A stretch of DNA of 64,000 nt from Candidatus Yonathbacteria bacterium. GTDB lineage: Bacteria; Patescibacteriota; Minisyncoccia; Phycocordibacterales; JACNGX01. The stretch covers positions 75,769-139,768 of the forward strand of contig JAAXWR010000001.1 of assembly GCA_013334825.1 (NCBI GenBank), read 5' to 3'. The notes under the pieces were generated by a model. The model was not told the DNA's origin and did no database searches. It was given only the letters and a program-made list of their open reading frames with translations. Position 1 is the stretch's first letter, and the number at the start of each line of letters is the position of its first letter. Shown in pieces: positions 1 through 32,960 of the stretch. The position numbers were made by a program, and so were the translations under genes.

Positions 1-1470
<1,470 letters not shown>

Positions 1471-1833: not shown

Positions 1834-2412
1834 ATGAAACAAGAAACCAGGGATTCTTTAAGGGATATCGTAAGGAGATTTGCGGTAAGTGAAATCTTTG
1901 AGAATAAGATATCAATTTCAACGCCAACGATGTTTGTCGTTGATGGCGTATGGGGAAAGTGGGATTCGCAAAAGCTCGTTGCACGCATAAAAGACAGGAT
2001 CACGCATTCCATGGTACAAAAACTTCTTGGAGTGAAAGATTCGGAACTTAATAACGTTGATGGAGAATTGCGCAATCTCCTCAAGGGTCTTATCGAGAGA
2101 AAGATGAAGTACCATATTTTGGTCTACGAGAATCTCACCATCGTCACAGCCTATATGGATTTTCTTGTTGAGATTACAGCCGAGCATGGTGCTGATATGA
2201 AGAAACTGTTAAGTCGCCTGAAGCCCTCTATGGTTGATGACATGGTTACGAAGCTATTATCTGTCGAACCTCTGCCGGCACTTCTCTCGGGGGTTTACGG
2301 ACATGAGATGGATGCTCCGTATGAGTATCCTTCGGTTCTAACAACGCGCAAGCAGATATTGGCAAATGCTATAGAAATGCAAAAAATGCTTGTGACACTT
2401 GAAGCTATTTGA
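1834..2412 (+). CDS. hypothetical protein (192 aa)
   Basis: Clean ORF, no recognisable motif. Confidence 0.5.
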   Translation: MKQETRDSLRDIVRRFAVSEIFENKISISTPTMFVVDGVWGKWDSQKLVARIKDRITHSMVQKLLGVKDSELNNVDGELRNLLKGLIERKMKYHILVYENLTIVTAYMDFLVEITAEHGADMKKLLSRLKPSMVDDMVTKLLSVEPLPALLSGVYGHEMDAPYEYPSVLTTRKQILANAIEMQKMLVTLEAI

Positions 2413-2475
2413 TGAATACACGCTCCTCTTCGAGGAGCGTTTTATATATCTAATGTCTCGTGATACAATGTCTCC

Positions 2476-3069
2476 ATGACAAAAGCTATATTGTTTGACC
2501 TGGATGGTCTTGTGATTATCGGACAGGGAAAATTGTTCAGCGATCGCGTTTCGGAAGAAATGCATATTCCGTCGGAGTCGATATCCGAATTCTTTACCAA
2601 AGATTTCCGAGAGTGTTCTTTCGGGAGGTCTGATTTGAAAGAGAATATTGCACCCTATCTTGTCGCTTGGGGATATAAAGGAACGGTTGATGATTTTTTA
2701 AGATACTGGTTTGAAGGGGAGAGTCATACAGATGAAGAGGTTTTATCATTGGTAAATACGCTACGTTCTCGCGGAATTGAATGCTATATCGCGACACGTC
2801 AAGAAAAGTACAGAAAAGAATATTTGATGAATGTTGTGGGGTTGAAAGACAAGTTTGATGGTATATTCGCAACATGTGATATCGGATACGATAAATGGGA
2901 GGAAGGATATTGGAAATATGTTTTTGATAAGTTGAATATGATCCCGGAGGAAATTATGTTCTTTTGTGATAGTGAGAAGAATGTTGAGAACGCAAAGACA
3001 TTTGGTGTCGAAGCATACTTCTACACAGATATAAATCTTTTAAAAGAAAAGATTGCACATCTTTTGTAA
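2476..3069 (+). CDS. HAD-superfamily hydrolase
   Basis: N-terminal ILFDLDGLVI (HAD motif I DxDG); -10-like TACAAT 6 nt upstream of the ATG. Confidence 0.75.
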   Translation: MTKAILFDLDGLVIIGQGKLFSDRVSEEMHIPSESISEFFTKDFRECSFGRSDLKENIAPYLVAWGYKGTVDDFLRYWFEGESHTDEEVLSLVNTLRSRGIECYIATRQEKYRKEYLMNVVGLKDKFDGIFATCDIGYDKWEEGYWKYVFDKLNMIPEEIMFFCDSEKNVENAKTFGVEAYFYTDINLLKEKIAHLL

Positions 3070-3449
3070 TAGTGCACACGTCCAGTCGTCTGTTTTTGGT
3101 CTACACTGTGGGATGTTTTTGTTTTGAATGTGTGTCACTTGAACATTTGAATTTGTTTAGGATTTAGAGCTTCATGCTTCGGATTTCGCCCGTTTGGGTT
3201 TTGTTGCCTATTGGGGTTATTTTTGCTATAGTTTTCTTCGGTTCGCCGAAGCGAATGAGATTCGCGAAGGCGACCCTTGATGCGCTTTCAGTACGCCGAA
3301 GCCTTGGCGGAGGCGACCTGCCTTCGCTAAAGCTTCGGCGAGGTGAAGCCCGCCTTCGTCCGCAAGCGGACTTCGGCGAGGTGAAACAGTCCTGATATGT
3401 TCCATATAAATACGTCACTCGGACGTTATAAGAATGAATACGACCAATA

Positions 3450-3486
3450 GTGCGCTTCGTGCGCGTTTATCAGGCAGGTTAGAGCG
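3450..3486 (+). pseudogene. truncated copy of the tRNA-Ile(GAU) 5' half (acceptor through anticodon loop), ends in the CCTGAT|ATGTTCCATATA junction
   Basis: GCGCGTTTATCAGGCAGGTTAGAGCGCAGTCCTGAT matches the 5' half of the intact tRNA at 3562; part of a ~100-nt tandem duplicated unit (3397-3561). Confidence 0.7.
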
Positions 3487-3561
3487 CAGTCCTGATATGT
3501 TCCATATATGCACTGCACTCGGATGATATACAAATGAGTACAATCAAATAGTGTCCCGTGT

Positions 3562-3635
3562 GCGCGTTTAGCTCAGGTGGTTAGAGCGCAGTCCTGATAA
3601 GACTGAGGTCCCAGGTTCGAGTCCTGGAACGCGCA
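3562..3635 (+). tRNA. tRNA-Ile (anticodon GAU)
   Basis: Acceptor GCGCGTT/AACGCGC, D-arm TAGCTCAGGTGGTTAGAGC, anticodon loop CTGATAA, T-arm CCAGGTTCGAGTCCTGG. No encoded CCA. Flanked by a perfect 17-bp inverted repeat (3529-3545 / 3648-3664). Confidence 0.9.
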
Positions 3636-3689
3636 CACGGAACAGTATTGTACTCATTTGTATGACATCCTCGTTTGTGCATATAAGAC

Positions 3690-3960
3690 AGAGGTCCCAT
3701 GTTCCTGCCATGAACCCTACGTGGTTCATGGCGAGTCCTGGAACGCGCACGAAGCGCAGTACGTATTCATTCTTATGCCGTCCTCGCTAGTATTTATAAG
3801 ACTGAGGTCCCAGGTTTTTACCATGAACCCTACGTGGTTCATGGCGAGTTCTGGAACGCGCACGAAGCGCAGTACGTATTCATTCTTATGCCGTCCTCGC
3901 TAGTATTTATAAGACTGAGGTCCCAGGTTCCTGCCGTGAACCACGTAGGGTTCATCGCGA
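3690..3960 (+). repeat. ~2.5 tandem ~114-nt units, each a copy of the tRNA-Ile 3' half with a 29-nt palindrome (CCATGAACCCTACGTGGTTCATGG) inserted in the T-loop
   Basis: ATAAGACTGAGGTCCCAGGTT-[palindrome]-GAGTCCTGGAACGCGCAC repeated at 3690-3800 and 3805-3915, with a partial third copy. Confidence 0.8.
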
Positions 3961-4046
3961 GCCCCGGAGTTTGTGTGTGTGAAAAAAGATATGTTTCTGC
4001 AATATTGAGCCTGAGGATATTTGATTATAAATGAGCCCCACTAATT

Positions 4047-16315: not shown

Positions 16316-16400
16316 CACTATGCACTGTGCACCACGTAGGATGCACAGCAAGCCACGTGGGATGCACAGCACGCCATGTAGGGTGCAGGGCAAGCGTACT
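16316..16400. repeat. three tandem ~21-nt repeats (CCACGTRGGATGCACAGCA); inverted copy at 49681-49790
   Basis: Direct reading; RC matches the 49681-49790 block. Confidence 0.8.
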
Positions 16401-16455
16401 CGTTTGTACTTCGTAACCACTATACTATTCGTAAACAAAAACGAACTCAAAAAAA

Positions 16456-16487
<32 letters not shown>

Positions 16488-16532
16488 AACTAGCAACTGA
16501 CAACTGACGACTAGTTCTGCTATACTATAGTC

Positions 16533-18686
16533 ATGTCTTCTGATGCTCAACAGATAACCTATTTTGCTGAAACTGATTTTCGCAATAAGCGACAAAAGTT
16601 TGGTGTCAAAGCAAGTGACCGCACACGTCACATGTATGTGATTGGAAAGACGGGTATGGGAAAGTCTACCATGCTCGAGAATATGGCGATTCAAGATATC
16701 TTGAACGGTAATGGTGTCGCGGTGATGGACCCGCACGGAGACTTTGCGGAAAAGATTCTTGAATATGTGCCCGAAGAACGCATCAATGATGTTGTGTATT
16801 TTGCGCCGTTTGATATGGATTACCCCATCTCATTTAACGTGATGGAAGACGTTGGATATGACAAGCGACACTTGGTGGTATCTGGTCTCATGAGCGCGTT
16901 TGAAAAGATTTGGGCGGACGCATGGTCGGCGCGTATGGCGTATATTTTGCAAAATACACTTTTTGCATTGCTCGAATATCCAGACTCGACGCTTCTTGAT
17001 ATCAATAAAATGCTTGTCAACAAGACGTTTCGCAAGGATGTCGTGGACAAGGTGACAGACCCGACGGTGAAATCATTTTGGGTTGATGAATTTGCCAAAT
17101 ATACTGACCGGTATACGCAAGAGGCGACACCTGCCATTCAAAACAAAATCGGACAGTTTACTTCCAATCCACTCATTAGAAATATTGTTGGACAGCCGAA
17201 CTCAACCTTTGATATTCGCAAGATAATGGATGATAAAAAGATTCTCATCATGAACTTGTCCAAAGGACGTATCGGTGAAAGTAATACCAATCTGCTCGGA
17301 AGTATGCTCATTACAAAGATTTATCTTGCCGCGATGTCTCGTGCTGATGATCCCAACAGAGCAAATTTACCAAACTTTTATTTCTTTGTGGACGAGTTTC
17401 AGTCATTTGCGAATAAATCGTTTGCGGATATTTTGTCCGAGGCACGTAAATATAAATTAAATCTCACCATCGCACACCAGTATATTGAGCAGATGGATGA
17501 AGAGGTGCGCAGTGCGGTCTTTGGTAACGTCGGTTCTATGATTGTTTTTCGTGTTGGTTCGTTTGACGCGGATATTTTTGAAAAAGAATTTGCCCCACAA
17601 TTTGTTGCCGAGGATATTGTGAATCTTGGTTTCGCACAAATATATTTGCGTCTGATGATTGATGGTGTGGGATCCAAGCCGTTTTCCGCGACGACATTAC
17701 CACCGATTCAATTGCCCCCAGTATCCATGAAGAATCGTGTGATTGAAACATCGCGTGCATTGTACGCGCGCCCGCGTGTGGAAATTGAAGAAGTGGTGCG
17801 CACACGGCAAGCATTTTTGGCAGAAGATGCTTCGGCATCATCGGCAAAGCCAGCAGGATCATATGACCGTAAGACAGCAGGAGGGCAGGGGACAGTAAAT
17901 GGGTATGTTCCGCGTCCTTCCGGAGGAGGTTCAAACGGAGTGCGTCCACAATCAACTCCCCAAGGGAGCGGTGGATTTTCTCGTAATGATCGTCCTCAAG
18001 AACGAGATACACGTTCGCCCGTTTCGCCTGTGCCATCTACTCCGTCCAATCCTTCTTTGGGGAATGCGGAAGGTCGTCAGGGAGGAGTATCTCTTGATAC
18101 TGTACAAACAAAAGATGTGGGTGTTGCAACAAAATTTACCCCGCCTCTTTCTCATGGAAACCAGACTCCGTCTGTGTCTATTCTTCCTTCACGCGATACG
18201 TCTCGTACCAAGGGAGCGGTAACACCCCTTCCCGGGAGACGTCAGTTTACTGGTCCTGCTCCATCAGTATCTGATAATCGTAGACCTTCTCCCTCTGCGC
18301 AGTCTCGTCCCGCGACTTCCTCACCTATGAGAGAAGAGCGTCAAGTGTCTCTTAGTTCACTTAAAAAAGATATTGCGCATACTGCTCACTCGACACAAAA
18401 TAAAAATGCTCTTCGCGACGCGCTTCAAGGTGTGCTTGCTACTGTAGAAGCGCAAGGAAAAGCTTCCGCGTCTGTTCCTTTGCCGTCTTCCACGCATACG
18501 GCGCCTGTGTCAGAAGATGATGGATGGAAAACTATTCATGGAGAACCAGAGTTTGTAAAAAAACCTCTCACAGAAAATGCAGAAAAATCATCCGTTACTC
18601 CTTCACAAGACGCGCAAAAAGAACATGCATCTACACCAAAAGAAATTCCCGAAACTATTCTTCGTAAAGTACTTGATGATTTATAA
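16533..18686 (+). CDS. P-loop ATPase of the TraG/VirD4/HerA-FtsK (DUF87/AAA_10-like) family, no TM, with a ~280-aa disordered S/T/P-rich C-terminal tail
   Basis: Walker A VIGKTGMGKST, Walker B FFVDEFQ, coupling-protein-like LSEARKYKLNLTIAHQY...GNVGSMIVFRVG; TATACT 8 nt before ATG. Confidence 0.6.
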   Translation: MSSDAQQITYFAETDFRNKRQKFGVKASDRTRHMYVIGKTGMGKSTMLENMAIQDILNGNGVAVMDPHGDFAEKILEYVPEERINDVVYFAPFDMDYPISFNVMEDVGYDKRHLVVSGLMSAFEKIWADAWSARMAYILQNTLFALLEYPDSTLLDINKMLVNKTFRKDVVDKVTDPTVKSFWVDEFAKYTDRYTQEATPAIQNKIGQFTSNPLIRNIVGQPNSTFDIRKIMDDKKILIMNLSKGRIGESNTNLLGSMLITKIYLAAMSRADDPNRANLPNFYFFVDEFQSFANKSFADILSEARKYKLNLTIAHQYIEQMDEEVRSAVFGNVGSMIVFRVGSFDADIFEKEFAPQFVAEDIVNLGFAQIYLRLMIDGVGSKPFSATTLPPIQLPPVSMKNRVIETSRALYARPRVEIEEVVRTRQAFLAEDASASSAKPAGSYDRKTAGGQGTVNGYVPRPSGGGSNGVRPQSTPQGSGGFSRNDRPQERDTRSPVSPVPSTPSNPSLGNAEGRQGGVSLDTVQTKDVGVATKFTPPLSHGNQTPSVSILPSRDTSRTKGAVTPLPGRRQFTGPAPSVSDNRRPSPSAQSRPATSSPMREERQVSLSSLKKDIAHTAHSTQNKNALRDALQGVLATVEAQGKASASVPLPSSTHTAPVSEDDGWKTIHGEPEFVKKPLTENAEKSSVTPSQDAQKEHASTPKEIPETILRKVLDDL

Positions 18687-18701
18687 GTTATTGTAAATCG
18701 T

Positions 18702-20294
18702 ATGAGACACATCTCACTCTCTATACACTATCAGTATATGATTGCCGTAGTGTTTTTGTTCGTGCCTGTTTTTGTGTTTGCCGATGTACGTATGACAGAG
18801 GTGATGTATGATCCTTCAGGCACAGACACGGGAAGAGAATGGATAGAAGTGTGCAATACTGGTGATACGGATATCACACTTTCAACATGGCGTCTATTTG
18901 AGGGTGATACTAATCACAAAATTACGACAACGACATCTTCGGAAAACGGTATACTTGGTGGACATGCATGCGCGATTATTGCAGATAAGCCTGATGCTTT
19001 TGCAAACGACTTTTCCGAGTATACGGGGCGAGTGTTTGACAGTACGTTTTCATTGAATAACACGGGAGAAACACTTATTCTTCGTGACGGTGATTTGATA
19101 GATAGTGATACTACTGTCTATGATGTATCAGCAAGTGGTGCTGGCGATGGTAATACTCTTTCGCGAACTGTATCAGGGGCATGGGTCGCCACTGCTCCCA
19201 ACCCAGGCGTTTGGGATCCTTCATCTTTTCCTGCTCCGATAGAAGCAGAAAAGGACGATACATCAAATACGAATGATGAAGAAGAAACAGAATCAAAAAC
19301 TGTCGAATCATCAGTACTTTCTTGGATTCCCAAACCATCTATCTATGCATACGCAGGGAAGGATACTACAGTGCTTGCGGGCGCATCAGTAGCATTTACA
19401 GGGCAGGGCGCGGGGACGACAAAAACACCACTTAAAATTGCCGAGTATGTATGGAACTTTGGTGACGGTACTATTATGCGTGGACAAAGCGTGTTTCATA
19501 CGTATCGGTACCCGGGAACATATATTGCATATCTCACTGTGGTGTCGGGGGACGTACAAGGAGGAGATAGTGTAACAATCACTGTCAAAGAGCCAAAACT
19601 TACTCTATCTGCGGTGGGGATGGAGTCTGATGATCGATATGTTGAAATAACGAACGGAGCATCAGAAGAAATTGAATTGTCATATTGGTATTTGCGCGCG
19701 GGAGAAAGACAGTTTCGGATCCCTGAACATACGTATATACAGGGAGGCGCATCCGTGCGTTTTCTGGAAGAAGTAACACAATTATCGCCCATGTCTCCTG
19801 ATAGAGTAGCGCTTCTGTATCCCAATCTTCGGACATATACGTCATACGCGGAGACAGTATCAAGAGATGGAGAAACACCTGTTGCGCGTGCAGTCGCATC
19901 CGTTACATCGGCGGTCAAGTCTGTCGCTCAGGCGATTACTACTCCTGTTGTCGAGACATCACAAGCGTCGCGCGCAAATATTGCGACACCAAACCCTACA
20001 GTTCCCGCGGTTTCCTCTGCTGTGGATGAAGGAATACCTCATCAAGAAGCGATACTACAAGACGGAGAAGAGGTAACTCTGTCTACTACACCAGAAGTGC
20101 TTTCTGTGAGCAATGCGGTCGCAGCATCCGCCGCGACAAGTGGCAGTCCCGAACGGTCGTTTTGGTATCTTGCACTTGGAGGTGTCATTATTCTTGGTAT
20201 GGCGGGTGCATTTATCGCAAGTGGGGGAGAAGGGAGAAAGCAAGAAAAAGAAGAAGAAACAAGAGAATCGGATGAATATGAGATTGTGGAGTAA
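18702..20294 (+). CDS. surface protein: signal peptide, lamin-tail domain, PKD domain, second lamin-tail domain, C-terminal TM anchor
   Basis: LTD: RMTEVMYDPSGTDTGREWIEVCNTGDTDITLSTWRL...NTGETLILRDGD; PKD: WNFGDGT...HTYRYPGTYIAYLTV; second LTD VEITNGASEEIELSYWYL. Confidence 0.7.
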   Translation: MRHISLSIHYQYMIAVVFLFVPVFVFADVRMTEVMYDPSGTDTGREWIEVCNTGDTDITLSTWRLFEGDTNHKITTTTSSENGILGGHACAIIADKPDAFANDFSEYTGRVFDSTFSLNNTGETLILRDGDLIDSDTTVYDVSASGAGDGNTLSRTVSGAWVATAPNPGVWDPSSFPAPIEAEKDDTSNTNDEEETESKTVESSVLSWIPKPSIYAYAGKDTTVLAGASVAFTGQGAGTTKTPLKIAEYVWNFGDGTIMRGQSVFHTYRYPGTYIAYLTVVSGDVQGGDSVTITVKEPKLTLSAVGMESDDRYVEITNGASEEIELSYWYLRAGERQFRIPEHTYIQGGASVRFLEEVTQLSPMSPDRVALLYPNLRTYTSYAETVSRDGETPVARAVASVTSAVKSVAQAITTPVVETSQASRANIATPNPTVPAVSSAVDEGIPHQEAILQDGEEVTLSTTPEVLSVSNAVAASAATSGSPERSFWYLALGGVIILGMAGAFIASGGEGRKQEKEEETRESDEYEIVE

Positions 20295-20688
20295 ATGAAT
20301 GTTTATTGTAAGAGAAAATATATTTGAGAAAACCATTTTTATACGTGATATAATTATGTTGTGATAGTGAATTATTATTTTATTTTTTATATATGAAATC
20401 AATACAGATAACTATTTGTAAAAACGGTGAATGTAATAACTATAGAATACCAAAAGAATATGGTTTTGATTTGGTTGATATGATTGCTTTGAGTAATCCA
20501 GCGGAAGCGAAAATGTCTGGAGCAACAATGCCCGAATATTATATAGAAAAAATTGAGATAGAAGAATAATATACGTTGTTTTGATTTGTGTGATGAAATT
20601 ATTTTTTCTCCACAATAACTTATTTTGACAAGCAATGTCTACGAGATACAATATAGTCGTTATTTATTCGCTCTCGTTATTCTTCATA

Positions 20689-21258
20689 ACCAATATGAGA
20701 AATATACTTATACTTACATGCGCAATACTCCTTGGGGTGGGAGGTTTTTTAGCGCTTGCGATTTTTGTTAATCCCACGGATACACTTGCATATTCTTATT
20801 CTGGTAAAAAATGGAACACAACATCTGTTGGTGTTGATGTGAGTGACGCAAGTTGGCCCAGCAGTTGGATTTCTCCTCTCGCATCTGCCATGAGCGCGTG
20901 GAATGGAGCGTCATCTCCGTTTACCTTTTCTTCCAGCGCATCAGGACATAAGTTCACGAGATCAAATATGGGTGTCGGCCCTTTGGCGGTTAATACGACT
21001 TCCTACATTGGAAGTACTATCGTCGATTGCGATACAAATTTCAATCTCTACTACAGCTGGTCCACTTCGGGAAGCGGTTGTTGTTATGACGTACAAAGTG
21101 TCGCCACACATGAATTGGGACACTGGTTAATGCTCTATGATCTTTATGGTGGAGGTGATACTGAAAAAACGATGTATTGGAGCGCCACGACAGGAGAGAC
21201 AAAAAAGAGGTCTCTCCATTCCGACGACATTAACGGCATTAACTATATTTATCCTTAA
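20689..21258 (+). CDS. metzincin-like zinc metalloprotease (matrixin/snapalysin-like), secreted/membrane-anchored
   Basis: HELGHWLMLYD (HExxH...D), Met-turn-like KTMYW, matrixin-like SLHSDDINGINYIY. Confidence 0.55.
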   Translation, partial: TNMRNILILTCAILLGVGGFLALAIFVNPTDTLAYSYSGKKWNTTSVGVDVSDASWPSSWISPLASAMSAWNGASSPFTFSSSASGHKFTRSNMGVGPLAVNTTSYIGSTIVDCDTNFNLYYSWSTSGSGCCYDVQSVATHELGHWLMLYDLYGGGDTEKTMYWSATTGETKKRSLHSDDINGINYIYP

Positions 21259-21293
21259 GATTTCAAATTATTAGTTTTTTTATTTTCAACAAT

Positions 21294-21860
21294 ATGACAA
21301 TTCAGAAAATACTTATCCCAGTAATGATTTTGGTTGTCGTAGCCGTGGGCATCTTTAGTGCCGTGTCATTTGGACGTCAAGATCAAAAGGTTACGATTCA
21401 ATCAAATGCTTCTTTTGCAAAAGTGACGAAAGACGAACTCATACAAAACTCAGATGCACTCGCGATTGTAACGGTGGAAAATATCAAAAGTTTCGAGGAT
21501 GTTTCAGATATTCGACCCGGAAAGCAAGATGTGTTCAGTGATGTTACTGTGGTAGTTAACGAATATCTTTATAATCCTCAAAAATTGACAGACTCCGAGC
21601 TAGTGTTGCGTGTATTGGGAGGGGAAACTGAAGATACGAAAATGATTGTAAACGGAGGAGCTTCCTTTGAAGAGGGCGAACAAGCAGCTGTATTTTTGAA
21701 AAGAAAAGATGACCAGGTTTTTGAAGTTGTAGGTTGGGCACAAGGTAAATATACCATTAAAGAAGACAGTATTGGGCAAGGTCAAGAAAAAGTATTTATG
21801 AAAGATATCTTTGGAAAAGAAATGACCCTTGATGACTTTAGATCCGAATTTACCGAGTAA
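21294..21860 (+). CDS. membrane-anchored hypothetical protein (188 aa)
   Basis: N-terminal TM, then a soluble domain. Confidence 0.45.
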   Translation: MTIQKILIPVMILVVVAVGIFSAVSFGRQDQKVTIQSNASFAKVTKDELIQNSDALAIVTVENIKSFEDVSDIRPGKQDVFSDVTVVVNEYLYNPQKLTDSELVLRVLGGETEDTKMIVNGGASFEEGEQAAVFLKRKDDQVFEVVGWAQGKYTIKEDSIGQGQEKVFMKDIFGKEMTLDDFRSEFTE

Positions 21861-21940
21861 GATAATTTTACGCTCAAAGCGCAAAAAACACCCACAAGGG
21901 TGTTTTTTGCTTAACTATCGCTCGGATGTTGGGCGTGAGT

Positions 21941-21983
21941 GGGTGTACCAGGACTTGAACCTGGAACCGCCGAGGTATATGTT
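21941..21983 (-). pseudogene. tRNA 3'-half fragment (anticodon-loop 3' side, T-arm CCAGGTTCAAGTCCTGG, acceptor TACACCC) with no 5' half; bounded by the junction TATATGGAACAT
   Basis: RC reads ATATACCTCGGCGGTTCCAGGTTCAAGTCCTGGTACACCCA; no matching GGGTGTA acceptor upstream. Confidence 0.6.
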
Positions 21984-22018
21984 CCATATAATGACGGCAC
22001 TCAAACGTTAAAAATACG

Positions 22019-22092
22019 TGGGCGCACAGGGACTTGAACCCCGAACCGCCGAGGTATAAGCTCGGTGCTCTAACCAATTGAGCTATGCGCCC
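22019..22092 (-). tRNA. tRNA-Ile (anticodon UAU; decodes AUA)
   Basis: RC: GGGCGCA-TA-GCTCAATTGGTTAGAGC-A-CCGAG-CTTATAC-CTCGG-CGGTT-CGGGGTTCAAGTCCCTG-TGCGCCC-A; 5-bp anticodon stem, U33, anticodon T-A-T. Confidence 0.75.
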
Positions 22093-22190
22093 ACGTATTC
22101 TCACGTTTTCGTTTGTCATTATATATAAACATATAATGACATCATTCGAACGATATGTATGCAAGCATACAATCGATTCTCATTCGTCAT

Positions 22191-22228
22191 TATAAGCTCG
22201 GTGCTCTAACCAATTGAGCTATGCGCCC
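22191..22228 (-). pseudogene. partial duplicate of the tRNA-Ile(UAU) 5' half
   Basis: TATAAGCTCGGTGCTCTAACCAATTGAGCTATGCGCCC identical to the corresponding part of the 22019-22092 gene. Confidence 0.8.
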
Positions 22229-22762
22229 ACGTCCGGTCTCCGTTCTTTCGTGAAATTTTAAGTTCGGGGCTCCTTCGCCTTGTCAGAGCTTTAGGGCAGG
22301 TAACCAACTGCCGTGTCCTCCGAAGCCTTGGCGAAGGAGAATGCTAGGCACCCCTATATGTTCCCTTATGTGATATAAAATACATAACTTGGGATATAAG
22401 CATGGTACTACAGAATAACTTTTTTTTCCACCTATTGTAATAGAGTGAGTGCAGTAAGTGTTGCTTCCTACATTCTAGTTTGAATTGCAACAAATAGTAT
22501 TCCTTGGTGGCACTTTTCCTAACACAAACACCTCATACTGAATCAAATAGCCGAGACGTTTTTTCGCCTGATAATTCCGAAAGGACGGGCCTCTTTAAAA
22601 TGAAAAAAATGTGGTGTAATGTTGTTGTTCAATTGCCCGCCATATCCCAGTATCTCTCATACCAAGGTTAAACCTTGGGAGTATGCCCTGTACCAACATT
22701 AAGAGTTGGTACAGAACGTGTATTGTCATGTCATGGAGCATTGCTCGTGTTACAATACTCGT

Positions 22763-25250: not shown

Positions 25251-27452
25251 CTAAACTTTCTCAAGTAGTGTGAGAAAGTCCTTCAATTTTTGTATTTTTT
25301 CTGGTTCACGCAATTTAATGGTCTCGTGTTGATCGTGCATATGCTCGTGCCAGTTGTTACTTAGAATCTCATCTTTGACTGCACATTTTCCATCGATTTT
25401 TTCTAGATACGCAGATATGCTCCCGTCTGCAAGCGTGCTTTTATCAAGCATGAAGTAATACTTATGTCTCAAGATTCTCTCTAGACATTTTCGGACTTTT
25501 CCTATGGCTTCGTCTACATTACGAGAGTTATCTGCCGCATCTTTAATATATTTGATATCTTTGAAATACTGCTCTTCAATCAACTCATCCACGTCACATT
25601 CTTCAAGTACTGAACCAAATGTTTTAGAATGTTTAATTCTTAGTATTTTCGTATCTGAAGAAGGCAACTTTTCTTGCAGTCTTCCCAAAAAACTATCATC
25701 ATGAGTTAGGATAATTACCTGTTCTGGTAAATCATCACTCTCATTTCTAATATCAATTATTGCTTTTGCTAGATAGTCTTTTCTGTTTGAATCAAAACTT
25801 GAAAAAGGATCATCTAGAATGACTATTTTACTTTTCAAATTTGAATCCGTTTTAAGACTTGAAATGAAAAAAGCCATTGCTAAGAGTCTTCGATCACTGT
25901 CACTGAGTGTGTTTCCAAAATACGCTTTATCCAAAGGCTCTTCATCTGACTGAGAACGTTTATTGGAAATTGGTACTGTTTCCCCATCGATAACAAACTC
26001 ATAATCAAGAAAGTGTGCATCAGATCGTGTGAGATTTGATTTGCTATTTAACTTTTGTATTGTAAAATCTGCCTTTAAAACATCCCTCAAGACCATGTTG
26101 ATTTGTTCCTGATTCTTTTCAATTGTACTTTTCGTTATCTTGTCTATCTTTTTCCGTAATGCATCAATTTTTACTTTCTTCATTTCAACAGCTTTTCCAG
26201 CTTGCTGGTATTTTTCTGCGAGAGTTACACCTTCTTTACTATGGCGGTATTGCGACAATTGAAACTGTTTCAATTCATTTTCAAGACCTTGTAATTTGAG
26301 AGCAGAAAACTCTTGTGTTTTTAATTCATTTAAAATTGAATGTAATTTTTTGATTTCTGAAACAAATACTTGAAAATGACTGTCTTCCGCTTCACAATTG
26401 ATAGGATGATTCAGATTTTTTAGTTTTTTTGCAACATCTTCATCAAGAGCTTTTTTGTTTTCCAACAATAGTTTTTTATCTAAAATATCTTCACACTTAA
26501 CCCCGAGAGAAGTGAATTTCGCTATTTCTGCTTCTGGATCAAAGCGCAAGAATCTCTCTCCGTATGTTTCTATTTCTTGTCGTGTTGTTGTGTAAGTTTC
26601 CCCGAAGACTTTTTTGAAATCCTTAATCAGATCGGTGACTGGTGCAAGATTTTGTCCGCAGAATATACATGCATCTGAATCTTTTTTCAACAAGGTGACA
26701 CCGTCTGCCAGAAAATTCTTTGACGCATGTTCATCATTCCAGTGATTGCGAATATGTTCATCAATATTCTTTTCAGCGGATGTGTCCAGGGTTTTCTGCA
26801 TTGCAGCAAAAAAATTATCAAACGTACTTGCAAGAGGTGATGTTGGTACTAACTGCTTGAGTGCATCACTATTTTTTAGTCTTTGAATTTTTTCTTTTTT
26901 CTTTTCAACCTCCTCATCAATATTTGTAATCTCTATGGCTTTCAAGAAAAAATCAAATGTGCCTAGATCATATTTTGTATATTCTGTTTTTATTTGGTCA
27001 CGTTGTTTCTCTAGAGCATCTTGTTCATCACGCAATTCCTTTAACTTCGTGACTTTTTGTCCCACGTTTTCACCAACAAAGATGCCGTGTAAAGATGATT
27101 TGTGTTTATGATCTATCTCGTCACCTACAAAAACTGAATTATGTATAAAATTGTTATCAAATATAGCAATGTTTGGATTATTCCAATTTCCATTTGCTAG
27201 AGTTAGATGCTTGTTGCTACTATCTAAAATATCAATCACGATGTCGCCAGTGTGCCCAAAACTTTTCTTTCCTTTTATACATTTCTGATCAGAATTTTTG
27301 AGAGATCTAAAAATGGTGGTTAGGGTACTTTTACCATAGGTGTTGTAACCAAAAATGATTGTATGTTTAAGAAACCTTAAATCGTCATTGCCACCATTGG
27401 CAAAGTTTTTGAATTTTCCCAACCCCTCAATTTTTAATATCTTACTAATCAT
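25251..27452 (-). CDS. SMC-like ABC ATPase (733 aa) with a coiled-coil insert carrying CxxC (CIFCGQ, res ~262) and a ~150-aa C-terminal extra domain; candidate RloC/PrrC-like anticodon nuclease
   Basis: Walker A GYNTYGKST, signature-like LSDSDRRLLAMAF, Walker B/D-loop IVILDDPFSSFD, H-loop ILTHDD; C-terminus VRKCLERILRH; last gene of the R-M operon. Confidence 0.45.
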   Translation of the reverse strand: MISKILKIEGLGKFKNFANGGNDDLRFLKHTIIFGYNTYGKSTLTTIFRSLKNSDQKCIKGKKSFGHTGDIVIDILDSSNKHLTLANGNWNNPNIAIFDNNFIHNSVFVGDEIDHKHKSSLHGIFVGENVGQKVTKLKELRDEQDALEKQRDQIKTEYTKYDLGTFDFFLKAIEITNIDEEVEKKKEKIQRLKNSDALKQLVPTSPLASTFDNFFAAMQKTLDTSAEKNIDEHIRNHWNDEHASKNFLADGVTLLKKDSDACIFCGQNLAPVTDLIKDFKKVFGETYTTTRQEIETYGERFLRFDPEAEIAKFTSLGVKCEDILDKKLLLENKKALDEDVAKKLKNLNHPINCEAEDSHFQVFVSEIKKLHSILNELKTQEFSALKLQGLENELKQFQLSQYRHSKEGVTLAEKYQQAGKAVEMKKVKIDALRKKIDKITKSTIEKNQEQINMVLRDVLKADFTIQKLNSKSNLTRSDAHFLDYEFVIDGETVPISNKRSQSDEEPLDKAYFGNTLSDSDRRLLAMAFFISSLKTDSNLKSKIVILDDPFSSFDSNRKDYLAKAIIDIRNESDDLPEQVIILTHDDSFLGRLQEKLPSSDTKILRIKHSKTFGSVLEECDVDELIEEQYFKDIKYIKDAADNSRNVDEAIGKVRKCLERILRHKYYFMLDKSTLADGSISAYLEKIDGKCAVKDEILSNNWHEHMHDQHETIKLREPEKIQKLKDFLTLLEKV

Positions 27453-27458
27453 ACAAAT

Positions 27459-28229
27459 TTATTTCTTCATTCTTTGCTTGGCGATTCTTGCATATTCTTT
27501 ATCTTGCTCAATTCCAATCCATTTTCGACCATATTTTTTTGCTACATATGTCGTTGTGCCACTTCCCAAAAATGGATCAAGAACAATATCGCCTTTGTTG
27601 GAGCTTGCTAAAATAATACGCGTGAGCATTTCCTCAGGCTTTTGCGTAGGATGCAATGCGCGACCATTATCGCCACGCAAGCGCTCTTTTCCTTGGACAA
27701 GCGGAAGTTCCCAGAAATCACGCATTTGTTTTAGGTTTCCGTCCTTTTGCTTATTAGGATTTATTTTCTTTATTTCTTCGTAGTTGAATGTCCATCCACT
27801 TCCTTTTACAGCCCAAATAACAAACTCAGTTGAGTGTGTGAAGACACGCCTTGTCATATTCGGCATGGCGTTTGTCTTGTACCAAGTGATGACGTTATTT
27901 ACTTTGTAATCAAGTTGTTTTAATACAATCATCACCTCCGCGATGTTGTGATAACTACAGGCGACATAAATTGATCCTTTATCTTTCAAAGCTCTATCGC
28001 AAGCACCCAGCCATTTTCTCGTAAATTGTAAATATTCCGGTGCAGACATTTTGTCCCATTCTTCGTCGACCATGTACCAATCTCCGCCAGTCTTGTTGCC
28101 TTTCCAGTGCAAACCGTTTCCAGATAGATTATAAGGAGGATCAGCAAAAACCAAATCAATAGATTTTTCCTCAACCTTTTTATTGAGAGTGTCTATACAG
28201 TCTCCATTGTAAATAATATTTGTTTTCAT
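27459..28229 (-). CDS. beta-class DNA methyltransferase (N6-adenine or N4-cytosine, DPPY motif)
   Basis: DLVFADPPYNL (motif IV) N-terminal, VLDPFLGSGTT (motif I) C-terminal. Confidence 0.85.
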   Translation of the reverse strand: MKTNIIYNGDCIDTLNKKVEEKSIDLVFADPPYNLSGNGLHWKGNKTGGDWYMVDEEWDKMSAPEYLQFTRKWLGACDRALKDKGSIYVACSYHNIAEVMIVLKQLDYKVNNVITWYKTNAMPNMTRRVFTHSTEFVIWAVKGSGWTFNYEEIKKINPNKQKDGNLKQMRDFWELPLVQGKERLRGDNGRALHPTQKPEEMLTRIILASSNKGDIVLDPFLGSGTTTYVAKKYGRKWIGIEQDKEYARIAKQRMKK

Positions 28230-28232
28230 GTT

Positions 28233-30056
28233 TTATGTTTGAGAAATAAGGCTTTCTTGCCATACTGAAATGGTATTTGGAATATTTCGTAACCATTCAT
28301 TTGAATCGCTAAATAATTTTGATGACTCCAAGATTTCATCATACAGGCGAGCAATTTCTGAGTGTTGCAAAAATCTCTTTTTTGATTTCATTTGCACCAA
28401 CACTTTCAACACAGAAACAAATTGTCTAATCGAAAGAGGTATGATTCTTTGTGGTTGTCCCTCGTACTCGTATTTTATTGCTGTCCAGAAAGTGTTTACT
28501 GTATCTCTGTGCAACTTCGGGGCAATAAACAGACAATAGGAAGGCTTGTTATTATGTTTTTGTTCGAAGTCTCGTAAATGTCGCATAACTGGTTGACCTT
28601 CGTTGTACCATTGATCGCGACCATTCAGCATCGTGACTTCACAAATGGCATTAAAACTATCGTAAAAACACTCTATGTCTGGTGTGTTTGCGGGGGCAGT
28701 AAATGTTGGTTCATTGTCGTCACCGACAGGATAGTTTGGTTGAATTTTCAATGCATCATTTAAAGCGTGCAATCCAAGTGCAGATAATTTTTCAAGTAAG
28801 ATCGGACGATCATCAAAATCAAAAATGTTTTCAAGATCATTTATGTAAGATTCGACCTGTTCAATCGCTTGAGATTTACTGTGACTTTCTGCGTTTTGTA
28901 GTTCTCGTCTATATACTCTCAATTCTGTAATATATTTTCTTAGTTCATCAACCTGCATTTCCTGGTGACTCTTAATTTCAAGATTATCTTCCTGCAAAGT
29001 AGATTCGTATTCACGTATTTCCTCAATAAGTCTTTCGGCAATCTCATTATATTTTTCTGCAGTTTCCCAAGGTAGTTTCGGTTCCGAAATATCGGAAATG
29101 TAAGCAAGATAATCTTCTTTTGATTCGAAATGTTTTGCTTGTGCGTTATCATATGCAAGCAGAGAATCAATTTCGATTTTTCTCCTTTCCTCAAGATCAA
29201 CATAGAAACCACCGCCACGAATATGAATGTATCGAGTTAAGCGGAAATAACGGATTGCATTATCTCCATAATCTTGCAAATTGCTTAATAAGCCACCTAT
29301 TTCTTGTTCATCATCGGTTTCTAGAAAATCACTTGCAAACCGCCGTTTGTAAGCATCAAATATTTCTTTTTGCTCCTGCTTTGTTTTGCCACTTAATTCA
29401 TCTCGCAAGGTGATGATTTTTTCTGCATACATGCTGATACTTTGATAATGTATCAAAGTAGGAGCAAAGAGAGACAATTCTTTTTTACTAATGCCTTTTG
29501 CATTGTTGCCACGCGCAGTCTCTTTTTGGTTAACTTCGTTGATTAAATGGAGTGTTCCTATAAACGGTTTGATATCGTAGTCTCCGTTATCTTGATAATC
29601 TCGACTGTCTGGATTTGGTATTTGCCACTTTAAGAAGCTTCTAAAAAATATTTCTCCAAAATCAAAATCATCTTTTAGAAATAATTTTCCTAATTCTGTT
29701 ATTTTTACCTTGTTATCTTCGATGGCGACAAGCCCTATTTTTTTGAGAGGGTTCATTGACTGCCTCCCACGCATTGCAGGATCTTCATAATTTTTCGCAT
29801 TAAAAATTTCTTCCGCCTGCTCAAGAGAGATGTCTCTTGATGGATCATCAACCAAATCAACATGATCTTGCATAAGTCCATTGTAGAATTGGCGACTTCC
29901 ATAACCGTATATTCTGTTCTGGATCAGCAAAATTTGATATTTCTTTTGGTTCTCAAGATTCCACTCAAAATTTTCAAGCTGTTGCAAAACAATCAAGAAA
30001 TTTCTCAATCTCTCAGGATTTCGTAATGTTGTTGTGATTGACCAGGGTTTTTTCAT
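28233..30056 (-). CDS. putative restriction endonuclease (607 aa; size and two-MTase context suggest a Type IIS, AlwI-family-like enzyme)
   Basis: AT-rich ORF sandwiched between two MTase genes with 2-3 nt spacers; possible PD...ExK-like PDIE...CEVT near the C-terminus; family assignment is inference only. Confidence 0.4.
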   Translation of the reverse strand: MKKPWSITTTLRNPERLRNFLIVLQQLENFEWNLENQKKYQILLIQNRIYGYGSRQFYNGLMQDHVDLVDDPSRDISLEQAEEIFNAKNYEDPAMRGRQSMNPLKKIGLVAIEDNKVKITELGKLFLKDDFDFGEIFFRSFLKWQIPNPDSRDYQDNGDYDIKPFIGTLHLINEVNQKETARGNNAKGISKKELSLFAPTLIHYQSISMYAEKIITLRDELSGKTKQEQKEIFDAYKRRFASDFLETDDEQEIGGLLSNLQDYGDNAIRYFRLTRYIHIRGGGFYVDLEERRKIEIDSLLAYDNAQAKHFESKEDYLAYISDISEPKLPWETAEKYNEIAERLIEEIREYESTLQEDNLEIKSHQEMQVDELRKYITELRVYRRELQNAESHSKSQAIEQVESYINDLENIFDFDDRPILLEKLSALGLHALNDALKIQPNYPVGDDNEPTFTAPANTPDIECFYDSFNAICEVTMLNGRDQWYNEGQPVMRHLRDFEQKHNNKPSYCLFIAPKLHRDTVNTFWTAIKYEYEGQPQRIIPLSIRQFVSVLKVLVQMKSKKRFLQHSEIARLYDEILESSKLFSDSNEWLRNIPNTISVWQESLISQT

Positions 30057-30058
30057 AA

Positions 30059-31867
30059 TTATTTTGTTACTTTACAGTAGAAAATGCGTTCCGCATTATC
30101 TTCTCCGTTACTTTTTCCTGTCGTAAAGGCTTTGTAATCTTTTTCAAAAATCTCAACATCACCCTTGTCGTTTAGAATTTGTAGAATTTCATCATCACTC
30201 ATACGCGCATTAGAACGCCCATCTTTGGAATCTCCAGTATTATTGTATGAAAGTAAAATATGCTCGCAGTTTGCATTTCTGATAAGGTCTGCAAAAGCAC
30301 TCGTTGCACTTTTTAGGCAATAGTCACTTTTAATGTGAGAGCGATCCATTTTTTTACCAATCCCAATAACCTCTGGCTTTTTCCATTCCGCAAGATTTTC
30401 TAAAAGATGGTAGGCATCCGAGTATTGACGTGAATTATATGGTGGATCTACGTATAAAACATCACAAGAAATTTTTCTGATAAGGGTATTTGCGTCTTCT
30501 CTATAAATTTCATTATTTGTGTTGCGAATGTAATCAACATCAGGAATCAAAAGCTTTATGGGCTGCAACATGTCTAGCTTTTTACGAAAAGCGTCATAAT
30601 GACCAACGGTATTGGCAACTTTATCGACAGCATAAAGCAAGGAACAAATCAAAATATTTTTTTCTTCCTCATTTTCTGCTATCTTTTCAATTTCTGCACG
30701 CATTGCCCCAATCTTTCTTGCGTTTTCTTTTGTAAAATACGTCCCGCCAAAATGTTCAGAAAAATAGTTTTCCTTGTCGTTCGATAAATTATTAAGAACC
30801 TCTATCTTTTCAGAGATGCCTTGTCGCATGTCCCGATTGACTCCCAAAAACGCATATAGGCAAGCATAATTTGCTGAGAGAAAATCATTGGAAATGATTT
30901 TGATTTCTGGACTATTGAACCTTTCTCCAACGACACCTGTGCCTGCAAAAATATCGCAAAGTGAATTGATTGATCCACATTTTTCAGAAATTATGTCTTC
31001 GATAAATCCAAGCAATTTGTGTTTATTTCCCAAATATCTTCTGTTTTGAAGTTGGAAATACCCGCTTTTTGATGCTTGGGGCTGGAAGTAATGTTTATCA
31101 ATTTTTTTTATACTTACTTCGTAAGTCGGTTTTTCAATTTCTAATAGACCAAACAGCGTTTCTTGCATCCCGTCAGCGACATAATCAAAACCTTTATTTT
31201 GATCCTTTAGTTTTTCGTAAAAACTGTAATATCCTTTTTGAGAGACAATGACAAAATCAATGACAGAAATTCCCATTATTTCTCCTGCTTGTGCTATTTT
31301 TTCAACAATTTGAATATCTTTCTCGCTCGGCGTTGAATCACCAGACGGATGATTGTGTATAAGAATCACGCTTGCGGCGTTAAGTTCTGTTGCAGGATAG
31401 AAAATCTCTCTCGGGTGCAGTAGTGTCTTATCAAGAAGTCCAACACTGATAACTTCTTTTTTTAATAAAATATTTCTTGCATTCAGATACAGACAAACGA
31501 GATGTTCTTTTTTCTTATCTCTCAAATCGTAAGTTAAAGAGATAACATCTTGAGAATTACTGATTTTTATTTCGTTTGTCCGATCATCTGCATAAAATCT
31601 TTTTACTAAAGAAATTGCTGACGCAATTTGCAACGCTTTTGCTTGTCCGATTCCAGAGATTTCTTGCAAATTATCAACGGTAATATTCAAAAAGTTTTTG
31701 CCAAATTTCCTAATTATTTCTTGAGACAATTCTTGAACATTCGTGCCTTTGATACCGCTACCGAGCAAAATAGCCAAAAGATCACTTTTTGAAAGTGCTT
31801 CAGGACCTTTCTTGAGAAATCTTTCTCGCGGTCTATCAATTTTTGGAATATCTTTGATCTTTGTCAT
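30059..31867 (-). CDS. fusion protein: N-terminal RadC-like JAB/MPN domain + C-terminal Dam-family (alpha-class, D12) N6-adenine DNA methyltransferase
   Basis: RadC: HLVCLYLNARN...ILIHNHPSGDSTPSEKDIQI; MTase: RRYLGNKHKLL (motif I region), DVLYVDPPYNS (motif IV). Confidence 0.8.
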   Translation of the reverse strand: MTKIKDIPKIDRPRERFLKKGPEALSKSDLLAILLGSGIKGTNVQELSQEIIRKFGKNFLNITVDNLQEISGIGQAKALQIASAISLVKRFYADDRTNEIKISNSQDVISLTYDLRDKKKEHLVCLYLNARNILLKKEVISVGLLDKTLLHPREIFYPATELNAASVILIHNHPSGDSTPSEKDIQIVEKIAQAGEIMGISVIDFVIVSQKGYYSFYEKLKDQNKGFDYVADGMQETLFGLLEIEKPTYEVSIKKIDKHYFQPQASKSGYFQLQNRRYLGNKHKLLGFIEDIISEKCGSINSLCDIFAGTGVVGERFNSPEIKIISNDFLSANYACLYAFLGVNRDMRQGISEKIEVLNNLSNDKENYFSEHFGGTYFTKENARKIGAMRAEIEKIAENEEEKNILICSLLYAVDKVANTVGHYDAFRKKLDMLQPIKLLIPDVDYIRNTNNEIYREDANTLIRKISCDVLYVDPPYNSRQYSDAYHLLENLAEWKKPEVIGIGKKMDRSHIKSDYCLKSATSAFADLIRNANCEHILLSYNNTGDSKDGRSNARMSDDEILQILNDKGDVEIFEKDYKAFTTGKSNGEDNAERIFYCKVTK

Positions 31868-32239: not shown

Positions 32240-32620
32240 CGCCGAAAAAGGGGAGGGAGGGAGGGATTCTCTCCTTACAGGAGCAGTACAGGTTTTCCAT
32301 TTTTTTGGAGCAAAGCACCTCAAACATATGGGAGAACCTTTTTCCGCGACATCCCCGCTCTTTGCTCCGCAAAGGACGGGGTGCGCGGACCCGCCCAGCT
32401 CTTTCAAAAAGGGCTGGGCGGGCGAATCATTTCTGGGAGGGATTCGGTCACCAGTTCTAAGCATATTGCTCCAAGTATTCGCAATCCGCTAAGAACTCGC
32501 GACCCCGTCGCCGCGCTCCGACAAGATAAATCTTGTCGGGCTTCGCGCGCGGCTTTTTCGAATCCCTCCCTCTCTCGCAACATATAAATCGCCGGGCGAA
32601 TTCTCGCCCGGCTCATTATG
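32240..32620. repeat. GC-rich non-coding stretch with multiple partial copies of the tRNA-Ser T-arm/acceptor motif (GGAGGGATTC / GAATCCCTCC) and a long inverted repeat abutting the tRNA 3' end
   Basis: Copies at ~32246, ~32436, 32560-32583 (inverted) and in the tRNA itself; no coherent ORF; overlapping ORFs on both strands are spurious. Confidence 0.6.
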
Positions 32621-32623
32621 TTG

Positions 32624-32710
32624 CGGAGAGGGAGGGATTCGAACCCTCGAGACGATTGCTCGCCTAACACCTTAGCAGGGTGCCCCGTTCGACCGCTCCG
32701 GCACCTCTCC
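32624..32710 (-). tRNA. tRNA-Ser (anticodon GCU), long variable arm
   Basis: RC: GGAGAGG-TG-CCGGAGCGGTCGAACGG-GGCACC-CTGCTAA-GGTGT-[long variable arm]-GAGGGTTCGAATCCCTC-CCTCTCC-G. Confidence 0.88.
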
Positions 32711-32737
32711 AAATTATTTCTTTGTATTATTTAGCTT

Positions 32738-32818
32738 TCTCGGTGATGACGATTGCTCGCCTCACGCCTTAGCTGGGATGGGAGCGAGACCCGGAAGCTC
32801 CCATGGTCGACCGCTCCG
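32738..32818 (-). pseudogene. degenerate partial copy of tRNA-Ser (5' two-thirds) with a 27-nt hairpin insertion, lacking T-arm and 3' end
   Basis: GACGATTGCTCGCCTCACGCCTTAGCTGGG-[ATGGGAGCGAGACCCGGAAGCTCCCAT]-GGTCGACCGCTCCGGCACCTCTCC versus the intact gene. Confidence 0.75.
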
Positions 32819-32960
32819 GCACCTCTCCAATATAACAAGCGCCTTTAGGAAAGTGCTTGGTTTGGACAGTGTAGCATAGTTTTTTTGATTTGAGGAGACG
32901 GATGCGAGGTTTGTAAAAAATCTGGACGGTTACCCGTCCAGTATTATTTCGGTATGTTTG

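Follow-up and report, generated by a model that had tools for sequence, protein, structure and literature searches.

Two split tRNA-Ile loci of a Yonathbacteria chromosome segment as probable stacks of tRNA-bearing hairpin cassettes

Why should an intact tRNA gene lie between the two halves of another? The question is raised by a 64-kb segment of a Candidatus Yonathbacteria chromosome, the whole of which was analyzed here and is called the window, at two loci: locus A, around a tRNA-Ile(GAU) gene (3387-3970), and locus B, around a tRNA-Ile(UAU) gene (~21939-22420). The window is a bacterial chromosome segment with six tRNAs (ARAGORN, Rfam), and for comparison we used related loci and contigs from genomes and metagenomes, numbered L001-L192. 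Our answer, to which we give a probability of roughly two-thirds, is that both tRNA-Ile loci are stacks of protein-less hairpin DNA cassettes, each of which split the resident tRNA-Ile gene at the sequence CTTAT and brought a replacement tRNA with it.

The intact tRNA-Ile(UAU) of locus B had been recognized in an earlier sequence-only reading, and ARAGORN (anticodon tat) and Rfam (71.8 bits) agree on it (minus strand, 22018/9-22092); its discriminator is A and its D arm is similar to that of tRNA-Ile(GAU). The partial copies described in that reading are also present. An exact 42-nt copy (22191-22232) of positions 22055-22096 comprises the first 38 nt of the intact tRNA plus 4 leader nt, and a 3′-half copy (21939-21984) is 83% identical to the intact tRNA over 46 nt and 93% identical over nt 35-63. 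Their placing had been given the wrong way round: in the sense of the tRNA the 5′ half lies upstream and the 3′ half downstream, and together they bracket the intact gene. Removal of the 215 bp at 21977-22191 restores a normal anticodon arm, GAGCTTAT^ACCTCGG (^ marks a junction), with no base lost or duplicated; the halves are those of one older tRNA gene, split after C32-U36 (CTTAT). This bears out the proposal that a tRNA anticodon loop had received an insertion whose junction is marked by a recurrent 12-mer. Read in the tRNA sense, the locus runs from the 5′ half ending in GAGCTTAT through an empty module, ATATGTTTATATAT, a left arm, the tRNA, a right arm and ATATGGAACATAT to the 3′ half beginning ACCTCGG, and ATATGTTTATATAT together with the module ends forms 11-nt inverted arms (22114-22124 / 22131-22141) around a 6-nt spacer. 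Without the interruption, the outer allele would carry GAGCTTATACCTCGG and its own T stem.

Locus A is built in the same way, with at least two nested layers. The cassette at 3495-3682 lies within the split tRNA of the cassette at 3395-3795, which itself lies within a relic (3387-3394 and 3796-3863), and beyond 3863 a further duplicated arm and relic extend up to 3970. Removing both cassettes restores CAGTCCTG^ATAAGAC, again with no base lost or duplicated. The leader and trailer of each layer are complementary, and the layers differ by ~20% with compensated changes. Either single strand of the nested loci is predicted to fold as a "Russian doll" (z -7 to -12); a thermodynamic strand asymmetry was rejected, since folding is equally good on both strands. 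Neither arrangement is an assembly artifact, because independent assemblies, namely contigs of other sequencing runs and another metagenome-assembled genome (L001-L003), reproduce 16-3767 and 16363-22080. The organism is present in the sequencing runs SRR11449211 and SRR11449212.

The two loci share the 12-mer ATGTTCCATATA, which occurs exactly at 3397, 3497 and 21979 and with one mismatch at 8008, compared with a mean of 0.36 in shuffled sequences, among which four matches were reached in 0 of 100. Its recurrence beside tRNA pieces, remarked on previously, is evident from the truncated tRNA-Ile(GAU) 5′ pieces, which stop at 3397 and 3497, and the shared junction sequence in fact exceeds 12 nt, consisting of ATATGTTCCATAT followed by A(A)AT(G)AC-N-CAYTCRRAYG in four occurrences. 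The copies had been taken for reverse complements of one another and the two kinds of junction for the inverted ends of one element, and here the sequence-only reading has to be revised. All three exact copies lie on the + strand and seem complementary only once each is oriented by its own tRNA, since the UAU and GAU tRNAs occupy opposite genomic strands; both junctions are the right end of homologous cassettes, flipped by the strand on which CTTAT lies. The sense strand of tRNA-Ile(UAU) provides this sequence as C32-U36, and in tRNA-Ile(GAU) it is complementary to A35-G39; because it is on the antisense strand of the latter, the cassette is inverted relative to that gene. Read on the element strand, the two loci are alike, with CTTAT^AA(A)T(G)AC... 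on the left and ...ATATGGAACATAT^ on the right. In all cases the cargo tRNA points in the same direction as the gene that was disrupted, presumably because of selection for expression from the resident promoter. A promoter scan found no full sigma-70-type promoter at locus B; a TATAAT arising at its CTTAT^AAT junction was seen by eye only. The features of both loci are collected in Table 1.

Table 1 Components of the two tRNA-Ile loci in window coordinates.
Feature	Position	Strand	Remarks
Outermost 5′ relic, tRNA-Ile(GAU) anticodon arm (CAGTCCTG)	3387..3394	+	With 3796 onward, exact CAGTCCTG^ATAAGACTG
Layer-2 cassette, element top strand minus	3395..3795	-	Site 3395-3407, arm 3408-3458, arm 3751-3795
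Split tRNA inside layer-2 cassette	5′ part 3461-3494, 3′ part 3683-3750		
Layer-1 (innermost) cassette with cargo tRNA	3495..3682	-	Site 3495-3507, arm 3508-3561, arm 3637-3682
Intact tRNA-Ile(GAU), innermost cargo	3562..3636	+	Same direction as disrupted outer genes, reversed relative to module
Outer 3′ relics of tRNA-Ile(GAU) (3796-3863, 3909-3970) with duplicated arm (3864-3908) between	3796..3970	+	Each with 26-28-nt T-loop hairpin
3′ relic (nt 37 on) of older tRNA-Ile(UAU) allele	21939..21976	-	T stem and acceptor end different, self-consistent
Terminal mini-hairpin ATATGGAACATAT, right end of insert	21977..21989	-	+ strand holds the 12-mer
Right arm of tRNA-bearing module	21990..22017	-	Complementary to left arm (inverted repeats)
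Intact tRNA-Ile(UAU), cassette cargo	22018..22092	-	ARAGORN, Rfam
Left arm of tRNA-bearing module (AATGAC-AAAC-GA-AAACGTGAGAATACGT)	22093..22120	-	
Junction mini-palindrome ATATGTTTATATAT between both modules	22121..22134	-	Inverted repeat
Empty hairpin module AATGAC...GTCATT, tip without tRNA, directly after CTTAT	22135..22191	-	Covariance model R1, 60.1 bits, E 1.6e-17
5′ relic of tRNA-Ile(UAU), nt 1-36, ends CTTAT	22192..22228	-	Identical to intact gene; identity extends to 22232
Older eroded layers	22233..22420	-	Anticodon-arm-like copies 22257-22271, 22395-22409; site-like ATATGTTCCCTTAT 22356-22369

The same architecture recurs in Paceibacteria. More than 35 further cassettes were found in genomes and metagenomes, and all complete ones hold an intact inner tRNA. 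In ~40 instances the left junction reads CTTAT^AAYKNC-RARY-GA-G and the right junction ATTATAY(G)-N1-6-(C)RTAT^A(T/C)C; the insert lies directly 3′ of CTTAT in tRNA-Ile genes, and its right end is a mini-hairpin, ATATG-N-CATAT, whose terminal ATAYG...CRTAT covaries (ATAC-G...C-GTAT in L028 and L040). As the element end repeats the target, a 2-4-nt target duplication (TA/TAT/TATA) is compatible with these junctions.

The relatives of the window's RecG belong to the Patescibacteria, or candidate phyla radiation (CPR), class Paceibacteria, with the closest match at 64% identity. A tRNA-Ile(UAU) is present at 61 of 80 related RecG loci; ~8-14 of these 61 carry a cassette and the remainder a plain gene; cassettes occupy the tRNA-Ile(UAU) of L008, L028, L040, L043, L048, L054 and L071, with variants in L032, L044, L069 and others. 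Partial tRNA copies adjoin 39 of the 105 tRNAs in these loci. The UAU anticodon, singled out from the sequence as uncommon, is so among bacteria in general (PMC3575796) and is the norm here: it is a clade-wide trait and not a quirk of this genome. No tilS-like open reading frame (ORF) was seen among the scanned ORFs of the window. A tRNA-Ile2 with a UAU anticodon allows AUA to be decoded independently of tilS, as in Mycoplasma mobile.

When we scanned metagenomes with the left-junction pattern, at least 120 matches were obtained. Among the matches listed, 28 had a tRNA 5′ half upstream, and in 27 of these an intact tRNA-Ile(UAU) followed 30-240 nt downstream on the same strand, the 28th ending at the contig end; a cassette with a kilobase-sized interior occurred in none of the 28. 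Two layouts were observed, one with the tRNA at the tip of the module and one with an empty module followed by the tRNA within an ATATG...CATAT palindrome. Empty modules also stand in tandem, up to three of them in L153, and nesting is deeper in L128, L157 and L185. Covariance-model matches of the module fall almost exclusively at tRNA-Ile genes, with few solitary copies elsewhere. One such empty module lies outside a tRNA at L008 20-90, after CCTAT^, with the ATATGTACTCATAT end retained, and a tandem pair is intergenic at L181 1452-1592, after TTTAT^ and downstream of a terminator. Viral contigs scanned with the left-junction and site-plus-module patterns gave nothing, or AT-rich chance matches without a tRNA. 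Further tRNA-Ile(GAU) cassettes were not found via homologs of the neighboring HAD hydrolase, around which synteny is not conserved.

The module itself is a conserved hairpin. In an alignment of 18 empty modules from different genomes, 12 of the 16 consensus pairs show compensatory changes, and from its base the hairpin comprises a 6-bp outer stem (AAYKNC/GNMRTT), an internal loop and an inner stem, closed by a tip that varies. Within the internal loop, two Watson-Crick pairs lie between an invariant tandem G.A/A.G and a second A.G, such that 5′-GARYGA-3′ occurs in both arms on the same strand, which a double-stranded palindrome does not explain. G.U pairs outnumber A.C pairs by 17 to 4 on one strand of the 18 modules, and this excess, together with the same-strand GARYGA, argues that selection acted on the structure of a single strand, be it DNA or RNA, rather than on a double-stranded palindrome. 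At tRNA-Ile(GAU), where the module runs antisense to the tRNA, both layers retain the G.A motif on the element strand, which argues for a role in insertion and not in pre-tRNA processing. Rfam contained no family matching the module and no intron or ribozyme at E<=1, and a permissive threshold added only tRNAs and sub-threshold noise. A likeness to a hammerhead core or K-turn was rejected by eye: the helix continues past the loop, two Watson-Crick pairs separate the G.A motifs, and the module has neither a three-way junction nor a 3-nt bulge.

The state of the outer copies varies from intact to heavily degraded. Of 17 loci whose outer halves were joined, 9 still give a tRNA fold and 8 no longer do, and many outer copies have acquired extra hairpins in the D and T loops, including the three outer 3′ relics of locus A. 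Inner and outer alleles frequently differ. At locus B the 5′ relic equals the inner gene and the 3′ relic derives from another allele with a compensated T stem, its acceptor end having two mismatches with the 5′ relic. The outer halves of L164 make up a self-consistent allele (GCGCCCA..., CAGAG/CTCTG), and the inner tRNA is a different one, identical to the inner tRNA of L028; the flanks of L164 and L028 are ~72% identical. Mismatched inner and outer alleles were also found in L089, L126, L154 and L162. Taken at face value, the sequences suggest that the loci span recent to old insertion events.

Several smaller structured repeats touch these relics. The hairpin repeat GCCATGAACC-N6-GGTTCATGGC occupies the T loops of three dead tRNA-Ile(GAU) 3′ halves (3705-3732, 3818-3845 and 3931-3958) and recurs at 46127-46152, 46320-46345 and 49572-49597, six matches in total compared with 0.43 expected, one copy having an inverted loop. 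GC-rich repeats (CTTCGGCGAGGTGAA, CCGAAGCCTTGGCG(A/G)AGG) at 3230-3386 and 22270-22340 stand in place of the D-arm region of the outermost relics; the eroded layers of locus B also hold a GC-rich hairpin insert behind a GGTTA D-loop remnant, and in L103 and L032 similar ...CCGAAC...GGGCGAGG hairpins follow the GGTTA of their outer 5′ relics.

How might such loci arise? On the reading that we favor, a cassette would insert site-specifically 3′ of CTTAT in the anticodon loop and split the resident gene into the seemingly orphan halves, and each viable cassette would bring at its hairpin tip a complete tRNA-Ile with the same anticodon, so that decoding would be kept and the resident gene effectively replaced. 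Because CTTAT is recreated in the new tRNA and kept at the left junction, further insertions could follow inside, giving nesting, or alongside, giving tandem empty modules. Only cassettes with a matching tRNA would survive insertion into a single-copy essential gene, and for this reason the cargo would always equal the target. The cassettes may move, or may once have moved, as units through a single-stranded hairpin intermediate under the action of an enzyme encoded in trans, perhaps a HUH/Y1 transposase like that of IS200/IS605, perhaps a hairpin-reading tyrosine recombinase, and would have spread between genomes. A free-standing homing endonuclease was rejected as the main driver, since the inner tRNA recreates the target and confers no immunity.

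IS608 and ISDra2 insert directly 3′ of a fixed target of 4-5 nt, which is not duplicated and stays outside the left end; their right end closes in a target-like motif, their imperfect hairpins are read on one strand, and protein-less derivatives (palindrome-associated transposable elements, PATEs) exist. The cassettes resemble this IS200/IS605 group (Y1 HUH TnpA) in inserting 3′ of CTTAT, ending on the right in CATAT, having a one-strand hairpin and encoding no protein. They differ in that no tnpA was found, the left hairpin starts at the junction, a tRNA is carried as cargo and tRNA anticodon loops are preferred. In contrast to the separate end hairpins of IS200/IS605, the simplest cassettes pair both arms across the cargo; cassettes composed of an empty module and a tRNA hairpin do fit separate end hairpins, and single-module cassettes form one long hairpin plus a terminal mini-hairpin. 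By this analogy, single-strand transposition of the IS200/IS605 type may be the closest working model, and a hairpin-reading tyrosine recombinase, integron-like or Xer-like, would be the main alternative mechanism. Like integron attC sites, the modules would be folded single-stranded sites with strand-specific irregularities, and they lie within small, promoterless, stacked units that would rely on a resident promoter; unlike integrons, they have no integron integrase in the window and no attI, the cargo lies inside the hairpin, and ATTATAYG-N-CRTATAAT does not resemble R''/R' (RYYYAAC/GTTRRRY).

Other small repeats offer partial likenesses. Bacterial palindromic repeats that resemble miniature inverted-repeat transposable elements (MITEs), such as Correia/NEMIS, REP/BIME and Rickettsia palindromic elements, are likewise small, protein-less, multicopy hairpins that insert at short AT-rich targets and can give rise to a TATAAT-like junction box, as CTTAT^AAT does here. 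A classical MITE is bounded by genuine terminal inverted repeats and duplicates its target, whereas the module has same-strand GARYGA with G.A pairs and a tRNA cargo; the distinction is not a clean one, as the module ends AAYKNC/GNMRTT are inverted, yet the arms carry same-strand GARYGA and the G.U bias, and target duplication is ambiguous.

Could a tRNA gene instead have copied itself into its own anticodon loop? Long complementary leaders and trailers, serving as pre-tRNA processing stems, might permit replication to switch templates between the AT-rich base of the palindrome and the ATA of the anticodon loop. The complementary ...TTTGT / AAAG... flanks of plain tRNA-Ile(UAU) genes in relatives, the strong folding of both strands noted above and the constant agreement of cargo and target anticodons would all be expected from such self-duplication, as would the identity of inner and outer tRNAs in L130, L135, L157 and the locus B 5′ relic. 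We nevertheless consider it unlikely. One module family with its G.A motif is found at UAU and, reversed, at GAU, so it is not each gene's own leader; inner and outer alleles differ in the five loci named above and at locus B, empty modules stand alone in intergenic DNA, and the layers of locus A have diverged with compensatory changes.

Relics of attachment sites are a quite unlikely source. Here a larger phage or integrative and conjugative element with a tyrosine or serine integrase would have recombined in the anticodon loop and later been deleted down to scars. Elements commonly integrate into anticodon loops and leave pieces of the tRNA next to an intact gene; fragments left behind by integrations have been discussed (PMC9897764), as have archaeal tRNA genes disrupted and replaced by mobile elements, with an example in Caldiarchaeum (PMC3293823). 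The cassettes share with such tyrosine-integrase elements the target, an incoming tRNA sequence that keeps the gene functional and displaced fragments that remain, and the 3′-end copies typical of integrase events accompany other tRNAs, both in the window and at related loci. Large serine recombinase genes also lie 3-6 kb from a cassette in 4 of 27 metagenome loci (L157 216-1875, where the ORF end enters tRNA-like sequence; L086 5673-7299; L110 8686-10302; L177 25-835). Tyrosine-integrase elements, however, measure kilobases, carry a gene for their own integrase and substitute only one side of the tRNA gene, with a single fragment remaining, whereas in ~40 cases, none with a large interior, both halves bracket a unit of 130-215 bp in which a whole tRNA is the only gene and no ORF occurs. 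The unit moreover forms a conserved hairpin of its own, with covarying positions and strand-specific G.A pairs, and empty units stand both in tandem and at sites without a tRNA.

A functional intron-containing or split tRNA, in which the outer halves are transcribed, the tRNA-holding intervening RNA is removed and both tRNAs are used, had been raised from the sequence as an alternative and is highly improbable: the outer halves of L130/L177/L192 and L157 are perfect and join to an intact tRNA, the insert is near the canonical intron position and the G.U bias falls on the tRNA-sense strand at UAU loci, but the break is at 36/37 (UAU) or 34/35 (GAU) and not at 37/38, no bulge-helix-bulge is possible at the junctions because the 13-nt mini-hairpin lies between the 3′ junction and the helix, neither an intron nor a ribozyme family is matched in Rfam, the GAU module runs antisense to the pre-tRNA, and half of the cases have outer halves that no longer match or have decayed (8 of 17 pairs unfoldable, and locus B with its two acceptor-stem mismatches), always with an intact inner tRNA present (27 of 28 among the matches listed). 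The likeness to the split and multi-intron tRNAs of archaea (Nanoarchaeum, Thermoproteales), whose halves border complementary sequences and which have insertions in the D, anticodon and T loops, ends at the same point: archaeal pieces are the sole copy and are spliced at a bulge-helix-bulge, whereas here an intact copy is present, the motif is missing and the pieces decay.

Against the cassette explanation itself stand several observations. Neither a transposase nor a recombinase or integrase was found among the ORFs of the 64-kb window, and no transposase or recombinase, including Y1 HUH TnpA, recurs beside cassettes, the recurrent neighbors FtsH, RecG and SmpB reflecting synteny; an enzyme would therefore act in trans or be no longer present. 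The large serine recombinase genes named above lie near a cassette in only 4 of the 27 metagenome loci, at a distance of 3-6 kb. The GAU flip comes from this one genome only, though from two independent layers and a duplicate, and where inner and outer tRNAs are identical, local duplication fits equally well. Capture of a tRNA at the hairpin tip, in either orientation, is left unexplained by the cassette model. Orientation relative to GC skew is not significant, cassette tRNAs lying 6 on the G-rich and 10 on the C-rich strand and plain ones 33 and 18. Finally, no within-species presence/absence polymorphism was seen in the sole same-species pair (L089 and L189, which have the same structure; L170 is a different species), nor was an excised circle, so mobility is deduced from comparative anatomy only. 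In related metagenome contigs (L133 10693-13999; L135 5505-8133), an intein-like insertion (CVTGE...VINHN) interrupts the FtsH gene and RecG has an extra inserted domain of ~100 amino acids.

Full-text literature searches returned no published description of this cassette architecture; what comes nearest in print are the elements replacing archaeal tRNA genes (PMC3293823) and the tRNA fragments that integrations leave (PMC9897764). The cassettes would be a variant of tRNA-targeting mobile DNA, with a fair chance of forming a distinct class.

Other tRNAs of the window also have inserts beside them. Upstream of tRNA-Ser(GCU) (32623-32710, minus) is a pseudo-copy (32748-32828) in which a hairpin replaces the D/anticodon region, and the surrounding region (32257-32828, minus) contains an inverted 3′-end copy (32557-32574) and further GAATCCCTCCC relics. 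These are separated by structured inserts (…CGGGGTCGCGAG…, …GGTTCTCCCATAT…ATGGAAAACCTGTAC…) that recur beside tRNAs in many related loci and appear to be other families of tRNA-loop-targeting inserts. The tRNA-Tyr region (43553-43826, minus) continues with a terminator, an inverted 3′-end copy (43690-43710), a GC-rich structured insert and a direct 3′-end copy with its own terminator (43553-43567). After tRNA-Trp comes a 193-bp tandem duplication (46031-46400) with three kinds of CACGTRGG-centered hairpins, directly followed by a small GIY-YIG nuclease ORF (46263/46405-46667).

As for the wider setting, the window opens with a 16S rRNA gene (1-1470) that has no 23S gene after it, and two ORFs, for an unknown 192-amino-acid protein (1834-2412) and a HAD hydrolase (2476-3069; identical to a protein recorded from a Candidatus Yonathbacteria metagenome-assembled genome), precede tRNA-Ile(GAU); the rRNA operon is therefore unlinked and interrupted. 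Genes for a TraG/TrwB/DUF87 ATPase resembling type IV secretion coupling proteins and then for a Lamin-tail/PKD surface protein lie at 16533-20294. Positions 25251-31867 form a low-GC island (0.35) whose genes encode an AAA_13 ATPase, an N6/N4 DNA methylase, an AlwI-type restriction endonuclease and a fusion of RadC with a Dam methylase; it was probably gained by horizontal transfer and serves restriction-modification or defense.

A broader proposal, which we advance tentatively and with somewhat more doubt than belief, is that the cassettes are an unrecognized class of protein-less, single-strand selfish element that homes to tRNA-Ile anticodon loops via CTTAT, avoids counter-selection by bringing a spare of the tRNA it breaks, and overwrites and horizontally exchanges this gene across the CPR with the help of an enzyme in trans. 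If this is true, an essential tRNA gene would have been replaced repeatedly by incoming copies of a 130-215-bp hairpin cassette in a large group of uncultured bacteria, and supplying a spare of the broken gene would be a novel means by which a selfish element avoids doing harm, as well as a route for the horizontal exchange of tRNA alleles. It would also account for the breaking of short-read assemblies at the tRNA-Ile loci of these genomes, where tRNA finders would call spurious halves and pseudo-tRNAs, and the CTTAT^ rule together with a hairpin bearing two tandem G.A motifs could be used to fish for the enzyme.

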